Source: Candidatus Poribacteria bacterium (GTDB lineage: Bacteria > Poribacteria > WGA-4E > GCA-2687025). From it: a stretch of 64,000 nucleotides of DNA. Positions 6,806 to 7,263 of this stretch are shown piece by piece. The translations under genes and the position numbers were made by a program. The stretch covers positions 2,336,001-2,400,000 of the forward strand of contig OY762492.1 of the NCBI GenBank assembly GCA_963665845.2, given 5' to 3'. Under the pieces are notes generated by a model that was given only the letters and a program-made list of their open reading frames with translations, was not told the DNA's origin and did no database searches. Every line of letters starts with the position of its first letter. The first letter of the stretch is position 1.

Positions 6806-7065
6806 CCTGAAACGGACGCATATCGGCGTTTTGACGGGCGGCGGTTTGGAATCGGGTGCCTGTACGCCGATGTGCGCGTTTCTAATTGAGCGCAAACCGA
6901 TCGGCTGAACGGGCGGAGCGTATAGCGGAAGCGTCGGCGCGGATTCTGAACGCCGATATGCGCCGCTGACACACCCGCAAGCCGCGCGCTTAAACGGTTT
7001 GCGGGTTGGGTTGACGAACGCTGCTGCAAAATTGAGCGTCGCCGCCTGTACAACGCCCGGTCAGA

Positions 7066-7219
7066 GGCAGTCTCTATAGGCGATGATTATGGTTTAGAGG
7101 GTTCCGTTTGGAATGCGAAGGTTGTCTGGGAAAACTCTGGATTCCCGCTTGCGCGGGAATGACGATCTGGATCGACAGGCCGTCGCGCAAAATGAATATC
7201 ATCGCCTGTAGGTACTGCC
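7066..7219. mobile_element. 154-bp MITE ('MITE-G') with central REP palindrome
   Basis: 22-bp imperfect TIR GGCAGTCTCTATAGGCGATGAT / ATCATCGCCTGTAGGTACTGCC; flanking 8-bp direct repeat CGGTCAGA (7058-7065, 7220-7227); palindrome at 7141-7160. Confidence 0.88.
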
Positions 7220-7234
7220 CGGTCAGACTTAGCC

Positions 7235-7263
7235 TTGCGCAAACCGCCCCCACCCCCTACAAT
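7235..7263 (+). promoter_or_regulatory. Sigma70-type promoter of the sulfatase operon
   Basis: TTGCGC-17bp-TACAAT, ending 34 bp before ATG 7298. Confidence 0.7.

Follow-up and report, generated by a model that had tools for sequence, protein, structure and literature searches.

A miniature IS1-type element at a fixed distance from a predicted sulfatase promoter, and the phased IS1 clade to which it belongs, in a Candidatus Poribacteria genome

Insertions that keep a set distance to promoters have been described for Mutator-like bacterial elements. As far as the available part of Guerillot et al. 2014 (PMC3942029) goes, TnGBS, the ISLre2 family and the ISKra4 group insert 15-17 bp upstream of housekeeping -35 boxes; TnGBS are ICEs (integrative and conjugative elements), the ISLre2 family is p-MULT 3 and the ISKra4 group p-MULT 4. 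The same part of that source states that Mutator-like elements with symmetric ends insert in both orientations, and proposes a contact with RNA polymerase as an untried hypothesis. For the IS1 family of insertion sequences (IS), the consulted part of PMC12903888 gives action in trans as shown for E. coli IS1, while in the extract available of a survey of IS-gene neighbourhoods IS1 is among the families under-represented between divergent genes (PMC9208149). No fixed-distance promoter insertion was reported for IS1 in the parts of the full-text literature searched, a coverage that leaves out most subscription papers. The present analysis deals with a MITE (miniature inverted-repeat transposable element) of IS1 type located ahead of a sulfatase gene in a Candidatus Poribacteria bacterium (assembly GCA_963665845.2, contig OY762492.1, positions 2,336,001 to 2,400,000; this whole stretch of 64,000 nucleotides is called the window), and with the family of such elements in the 3.98-Mb genome. 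The features of the locus, in window coordinates, are:

7058..7065, plus strand: left copy of the 8-bp target-site duplication
7066..7219, no strand assigned: complete IS1-type MITE, 154 bp, no open frame
7066..7087, plus strand: left 22-bp terminal inverted repeat (TIR) of the MITE
7137..7164, minus strand: internal NTS/dRS3-type hairpin, an exact fit to the published NTS pattern
7198..7219, minus strand: right 22-bp TIR, the end that faces the promoter
7220..7227, plus strand: right copy of the 8-bp duplication
7235..7240, plus strand: predicted -35 box TTGCGC, with 15 bp between it and the tip of the element
7258..7263, plus strand: predicted -10 box TACAAT, after a spacer of 17 bp
7298..8593, plus strand: sulfatase gene (PF00884) downstream of the predicted promoter

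The original prediction, made from the letters of the window, had described a 154-bp element at 7066-7219 with a 22-bp imperfect TIR and a perfect 8-bp duplication, its end lying 15 bp from TTGCGC-17-TACAAT ahead of the sulfatase gene, and all of this is present in the sequence. Elements of this type are short and non-coding, share their TIRs with an IS, carry a duplication, occur in many copies and have empty sites, as expected for MITEs. Judged from the boxes, the right copy of the duplication would cover roughly -50 to -43 in the predicted promoter. The insertion cuts the core promoter off from everything upstream of about -50.

The original prediction had proposed to look for a clean empty site in related genomes, and one was found. 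In a related strain sequenced for another study, a contig joins 7054 to 7217; it skips 162 = 154 + 8 bases and carries intact promoter boxes. In a congeneric genome the sulfatase promoter boxes are also present without the MITE, with the upstream side rearranged, and the -35 box TTGCGC is kept in both. At the full-size IS described below, a low-depth contig from a sequencing run skips 830 = 822 + 8 bases. With the boxes still in place at empty sites, the predicted promoter is older than the insertion. The sulfatase gene is also covered by a run labelled as sponge metagenome, with 31 differences in about 720 bases.

In order to evaluate the spacing genome-wide, a profile of the 22-bp end was used. 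At a score of at least 16 it gave 261 ends; some of them are duplicated segments, so that not all are independent, and two TIR-like sites in a conserved coding repeat (C1:341199 and 3877747), apparently chance matches, were kept in the count. Column-shuffled profiles, used as control, gave 0-4 matches at score 17. It was found that TTG(A/C) starts at offset 15 outward from the tip in 86/261 ends; when intergenic positions were picked at random, 1.0% had it there (binomial p about 1e-102). Offsets 13 and 14 accounted for 3 and 9 ends, offsets 16-19 for 9, 2, 2 and 1, and any other offset from 0 to 39 for at most 7. The promoter phasing proposed earlier is thus borne out, but the proposed range of 13-15 bp is replaced by a sharp value of 15 bp. 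The next gene runs away from the element at 73/86 phased ends vs 102/173 others. Among 56 facing end pairs, a perfect 8-bp duplication was found in 26, or in 29 when one mismatch was allowed; one pair had a 9-bp duplication and no other length was seen. TTG(A/C) stood at 15 bp on one side in 18 of the 29 duplication-bearing elements (22 by a looser rule). No sequence consensus was found among the duplicated 8-mers. The promoter may be faced by either end of the element, as a crude division of the ends into subtypes showed; no orientation rule is drawn from that division. Five tRNA genes have an IS1-type end 54-71 bp upstream (G000:C1:258189, 828870, 1156785, 1658071 and 2623548), and four of these ends lie 15 bp from TTG(A/C).

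A distribution of this kind bears on the possibility that selection alone is at work, insertion being loose and the survivors being those that spare genes and promoters. Most ends are indeed intergenic, with 43/261 inside crude open reading frame (ORF) calls, as that explanation would have it. It predicts, however, a plateau past a minimum distance and not the one-base peak and rapid fall described above; in addition, an unrelated CTGACC-ended family survives closer to promoters, at 9-11 bp, and other IS1 elements of the phylum are unphased. We consider selection alone very improbable.

The second promoter element is equally informative. A TA...T -10 box at a spacer of 17 accompanies 55/86 phased ends, whereas it follows only 476/7374 intergenic TTG(A/C) words (6.5%), a tenfold enrichment. 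No TTG occurs at 14-16 in 146 ends, and even so TA...T is found at offset 38 in 15 of them, against counts of 0-6 at the other offsets from 28 to 49; these 15 ends mostly have a one-off -35 hexamer. Since the -10 box keeps its register even with a degenerate -35 box, the ruler is the whole promoter-like unit and not one DNA word. This goes against a direct readout, in which the transposase would recognise the -35 hexamer and promoters would be hit as the home of intergenic TTG(A/C) words. TTG is the strongest signal at the ends, and the helix-turn-helix (HTH) of the transposase has a weak resemblance to sigma region 4 models (E 2e-4, a score under the cut-off), both as direct readout would have it. 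The -10 box, however, is 38-43 bp away from the tip, a long reach for an enzyme of 244 residues, and according to the part of PMC12903888 consulted the same protein in IS1 binds the element's own ends. Direct readout is considered unlikely.

A transposase gene bounded by the same TIR, which the original prediction had proposed to look for, was found in elements of 822-825 bp. Five long elements share the MITE ends: two 822-bp copies with 99.6% identity, an 825-bp copy and a pair of deletion derivatives of 543 bp. All five have one end 15 bp from TTG(A/C); the promoter-facing end is the downstream one in the 822-bp copies and the upstream one in the 825-bp and 543-bp elements. The MITE and the 822-825-bp IS have 22-bp ends and an 8-bp duplication in common, and the left TIR of the window MITE (7066..7087) agrees with the ends of the 822-bp element at 21/22 positions. 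The 825-bp copy encodes, in a single frame (G000:C1:3507664-3508395), a 244-residue transposase with zinc ribbon, HTH and DDE domain, and its homologues are single frames as well. The 822-bp copies have two overlapping frames with an A7C run, a predicted -1 frameshift signal of insA/insB type.

The 244-residue protein scored 127.5 bits against the IS1 model NF033558 (cut-off 100), and the halves of the 822-bp copy 73.8 and 44.6 bits. The N-terminal zinc ribbon matched NF050000 with 37.7 bits (cut-off 28), and HTH models matched too. Four cysteines (C13, C16, C35 and C38) are invariant; so are D117, D178 and E203, in 7/7 aligned relatives, and these three residues align with E. coli InsB. Between the second Asp and the Glu there are 24 residues. 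The size of 822-825 bp, the 22-bp TIRs and the 8-bp duplication, with its empty site, agree with the IS1 family, for which about 0.8 kb, TIRs of 20-25 bp and duplications of 8-9 bp are usual. The predicted fold (mean predicted local distance difference test score, pLDDT, of 74) matches DDE transposases and integrases. By its model scores and conserved residues, the partner is classified as an IS1-family element. Out of the candidates IS1, IS6 and IS1595 named in the original prediction, transposase model scores retained only the first: NF033547 (IS1595) gave 30.3 bits against a cut-off of 75 and NF033587 (IS6) 18 bits against 125. The partner also fails the IS256 family model. The ISLre2 comparison made at the same time holds for behaviour but not for membership. 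The Mutator model PF00872 had no match in the genome, and neither had the ISLre2 model PF06782, which matched no control genome either (the assembly is 90% complete); the helical insert and the C/D(2)H motif are both absent from the partner, and an ISLre2/Mutator partner was rejected. From the shared ends, duplication length and phase, the 244-residue transposase would move the MITEs in trans.

Phasing appears as a trait of one transposase clade. At most about half of the ends are expected at 15 bp, as one end per insertion faces the promoter. In the congeneric genome, where the end pattern gave 58 matches and 21 sites plus 4 other loci were examined, 13/33 ends were at 15 bp. Close-clade IS from three other genera and one metagenome contig, inspected by hand, gave 4/11 ends at 15 bp; these elements have 45-56% identity and different ends, and one of them sits at TTGACC-17-TATAAT. 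The distant GAGGG-ended IS1 of the same phylum, which has about 30% identity to the phased clade, 8-bp duplications and AT-rich sites, gave 1/58 by hand; this count leaves out the G096 copies L076-L084, whose left boundary was mis-set, and loci lacking a clear inverted repeat. For E. coli IS1, taken as 80 loci out of 128 stretches found, 2/77 distinct flanks had the box at 15 bp and there was no peak. IS1 is a textbook element without fixed-distance targeting, and loose target choice is usual for it; the phased clade departs from this habit. A FastTree tree of 23 DDE-domain sequences sets the phased group apart from the GAGGG-ended, E. coli and named IS1, with support of 1.000 and its own long branch. 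Its signatures are a basic N-terminal arm, a loop longer by four residues after the first Asp, and a longer beta-hairpin.

Word search found 14 proteins of the clade, and 27 representatives were obtained at E under 1e-30; the named plasmid IS1 transposases have 24-36% identity to it. A scan with the end pattern gave one weak locus in genome contigs, three loci in metagenome contigs and none in viral contigs. Outside the phylum the clade is known from proteins, with no flanks from the pattern scans. The GAGGG-ended IS1-like element, a multi-copy single-frame element of about 930 bp in G105, G096 and G104 (L065-L084 and L103-L113), is common in another family of the phylum.

A second family shows the same habit with its own spacing, as had been claimed from the window. 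The CTGACC-ended MITE (168 bp, 6-7-bp duplications) has 479 ends, 172 of them with TTG(A/C) at 9-11 bp and the -10 box in register. Its full-size partner of 1267 bp (G000:C1:561322-562588, L094) encodes a 371-residue IS4-like DDE transposase, above the cut-off for PF01609 and below it for the NCBIfam IS4 models, and itself lies 9 and 11 bp from TTGA boxes. With IS1-family and IS4-like partners, which are unrelated, the independence of the two families is upheld. Window ends of the CTGACC family are at 11964, 27508 and 59298. On the promoter side, its duplication seems to stop at a constant 3 bp from the box. Between two CTGACC ends at G000:C1:3073389-3075095 there is a long frame that resembles, by eye, an IS110-family transposase.

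The two unrelated transposases stack at the same promoters, and together the families occupy 125/423 consensus-like intergenic promoters. The IS1-type family also reuses the same 8-bp site, as back-to-back pairs of its ends are exactly 8 bp apart in 3/3 cases. A split CTGACC-family end opens 18/86 phased IS1-type flanks, which could mean that the MITE simply piggy-backs by targeting the end of the promoter-phased CTGACC family. This explanation is excluded because 63/216 ends without such a remnant are still at 15 bp; moreover, the 15-bp peak is sharper than the 9-11-bp spread of the CTGACC family and the two families have inserted in both orders, so we give piggy-backing practically no weight. 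In six unphased IS1-type ends the distance to a CTGACC tip is 12 bp, and 5/6 return to 15 bp when a later CTGACC insertion and one duplication are discounted by hand.

These results are best accounted for, with a probability that we put at roughly 0.6, by a promoter-bound RNA polymerase holoenzyme that positions the IS1-clade transposase by direct docking. Sigma region 4 and the alpha C-terminal domain flank the region of the presumed cuts. The transpososome would dock on one of these in the manner of an activator, and its staggered cuts would fall upstream of the -35 box by 7 bp (about -43) and 15 bp (about -50). The clade-specific basic elements, namely the N-terminal arm, the longer loop after the first Asp and the longer beta-hairpin, may form the docking surface. 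The near-identical ends would allow insertion in both orientations, and a site that spares genes and core promoters could explain how the family reached hundreds of ends. Later recombination or IS1-type rearrangements would give rise to solo ends, hybrid elements and lost duplications.

Several observations weigh against holoenzyme docking. The contact between transposase and RNA polymerase is something that we infer, not an interaction seen directly, and the promoters at the phased ends are predicted sigma70-type promoters with unmapped starts. Not strictly phased are 175/261 ends; about half are expected to be far ends, and others are displaced or rearranged. No duplication was seen in 27/56 pairs, the sample beyond the genus is small (the 11 ends given above), the movement of the MITEs by these IS copies is argued from shared ends, and the best fold match of the partner is ISCth4 of the IS256 family (TM-score about 0.4, a likeness at fold level only). 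The genome also has an unrelated IS4-like family that is promoter-phased, as would be expected too if the cause lay in host DNA shape. Complex prediction of the transposase with the host's own sigma region 4 or alpha C-terminal domain gave a score of 0.00, which weighs neither way.

The DNA-shape cause would consist of promoter-bound polymerase bending or exposing DNA at about -43 to -50, with the IS1 clade preferring that shape and making no contact. It is a tentative explanation, to which some weight must be given. DDE enzymes often favour bent targets, no consensus is seen in the target sequences themselves, and two unrelated transposase families are phased in one genome, each at its own offset. 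Still, a trait of the transposase clade is required even then, as the sister IS1 of the phylum and E. coli IS1 are unphased, and single-base precision is more easily obtained by contact. Holoenzyme docking is thus retained as the preferred reading.

The other copies and ends of the IS1-type family in the window, with one predicted promoter, are:

11722..11802, plus strand: degenerate half-copy directly after the stop codon of a BNR-repeat gene
21542..21570, minus strand: TTGCGC-17-TAACAT, predicted as the promoter for a mandelate-racemase-family gene; the end at 21584 is 13 bp away
21584..21693, plus strand: partial copy with a single TIR, interior and hairpin; no second end, no duplication
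23796..23817, plus strand: weak end of a second TIR subtype, 16 bp from TTGCGG
26884..26966, minus strand: half-copy without promoter phase, its tip 32 bp away from where a TPR gene ends (3' end)
31556..31634, no strand assigned: 79-bp two-ended remnant between divergent predicted promoters, no duplication

Several of these had been noticed before. The 13-bp distance of the copy at 21584 is as described, but the copy is partial. The end at 31556 does lie 15 bp from TTGACA-17-TAGGGT; it is not solo, as was thought, but pairs with an end at 31634, which in turn is 15 bp from TTTCAA-17-TATCAT before a peroxiredoxin gene. Ends abutting the 3' ends of genes had been named at 11722 and 26966: the former lies just after a stop codon and scores under the profile cut-off of the genome-wide count, and the latter is at a distance of 32 bp. 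The weak end at 23796 had been missed.

The internal hairpin of the window MITE is cargo, because dRS3-like copies are far commoner than the MITE (866 on contig C1, mostly outside MITEs of this type) and absent from the full-size IS. It sets neither the MITE ends nor the duplication. An Rfam search of the window returned nothing. A further, third repeat module, present in 83 copies (GTTTTGAACTAG...), lies at window positions 15174-15232, 20147-20254 and 21709-21850, beside C/G-rich hairpins; promoter phasing of this module was rejected, as its apparent boxes are internal to it. At 51037-55750 the window holds three tandem genes of 126-bp (42-residue) repeats with a common N-terminal block, WD40-like in appearance.

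Rearrangements accompany the family. Of the 21 sites looked at in the congeneric genome, most either correspond to two separate locations or contain repeats of another kind. Between G013 and G000 (loci L036 and L045-L064) synteny is broken at many MITE sites, and the element subtype differs between the two at several orthologous promoters. Comparison of the two congeneric genomes suggests that the same promoter was hit repeatedly. The flanking 8-mers of the two 543-bp IS1 deletion derivatives (G000:C1:747897-748439 and 1463072-1463615) are swapped, and this suggests a 715-kb inversion between them. Elements at many rearrangement breakpoints are likely to reshuffle what stands upstream of promoters.

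On balance we lean to the view that an IS1 clade independently evolved docking on the holoenzyme, as a minimal promoter-seeking transposase that piles up with an IS4-like enzyme on the same promoters, the two occupying about 30% of the consensus-like intergenic promoters of this genome. If this is true, promoter tethering would be a strategy evolved repeatedly across DDE superfamilies and not a Mutator speciality. The case adds another superfamily to those with the promoter habit, and the genome contains a second, unrelated family that has it as well. The phased clade offers a small enzyme, close relatives that do not target promoters and three candidate segments for testing tethering, while the elements act as a promoter map in an uncultured lineage.

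The comparison with described systems is limited to the parts of the cited sources that were available. The element resembles the IS1 family (E. coli IS1, ISAcma4 and ISSru2; PMC12903888) in its zinc ribbon, HTH and DDE domain, its size of about 0.8 kb, the 8-bp duplication, the predicted -1 frameshift at an A run (in the 822-bp copies), the end rearrangements and a probable action in trans. It differs from E. coli IS1 and from the GAGGG-ended IS1 of the phylum in that its clade stands at a fixed promoter distance. The MITE shares an exact NTS hairpin with the NTS/dRS3 repeats of the Ssn nuclease system (Chenal et al. 2025, PMC11893778). Like yeast Ty3 at RNA polymerase III promoters (cited in PMC3942029), it keeps a fixed distance from an initiation complex; Ty3, however, is a eukaryotic retroelement whose integrase has a TFIIIB/TFIIIC tether, whereas here a bacterial DNA transposase would use a putative one. 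With TnGBS, ISLre2 and ISKra4 it has in common insertion 13-17 bp upstream of the -35 box, in both orientations and with near-identical ends, and a proposed contact with RNA polymerase. Those elements peak at 16 bp and encode Mutator-like transposases, which have a long helical insert as well as a C/D(2)H motif, whereas the present enzyme is IS1-type with 244 residues, the peak is at 15 bp and most copies are MITEs. The element belongs to the IS1 family, and its likeness to ISLre2-type elements is one of behaviour, not of membership.
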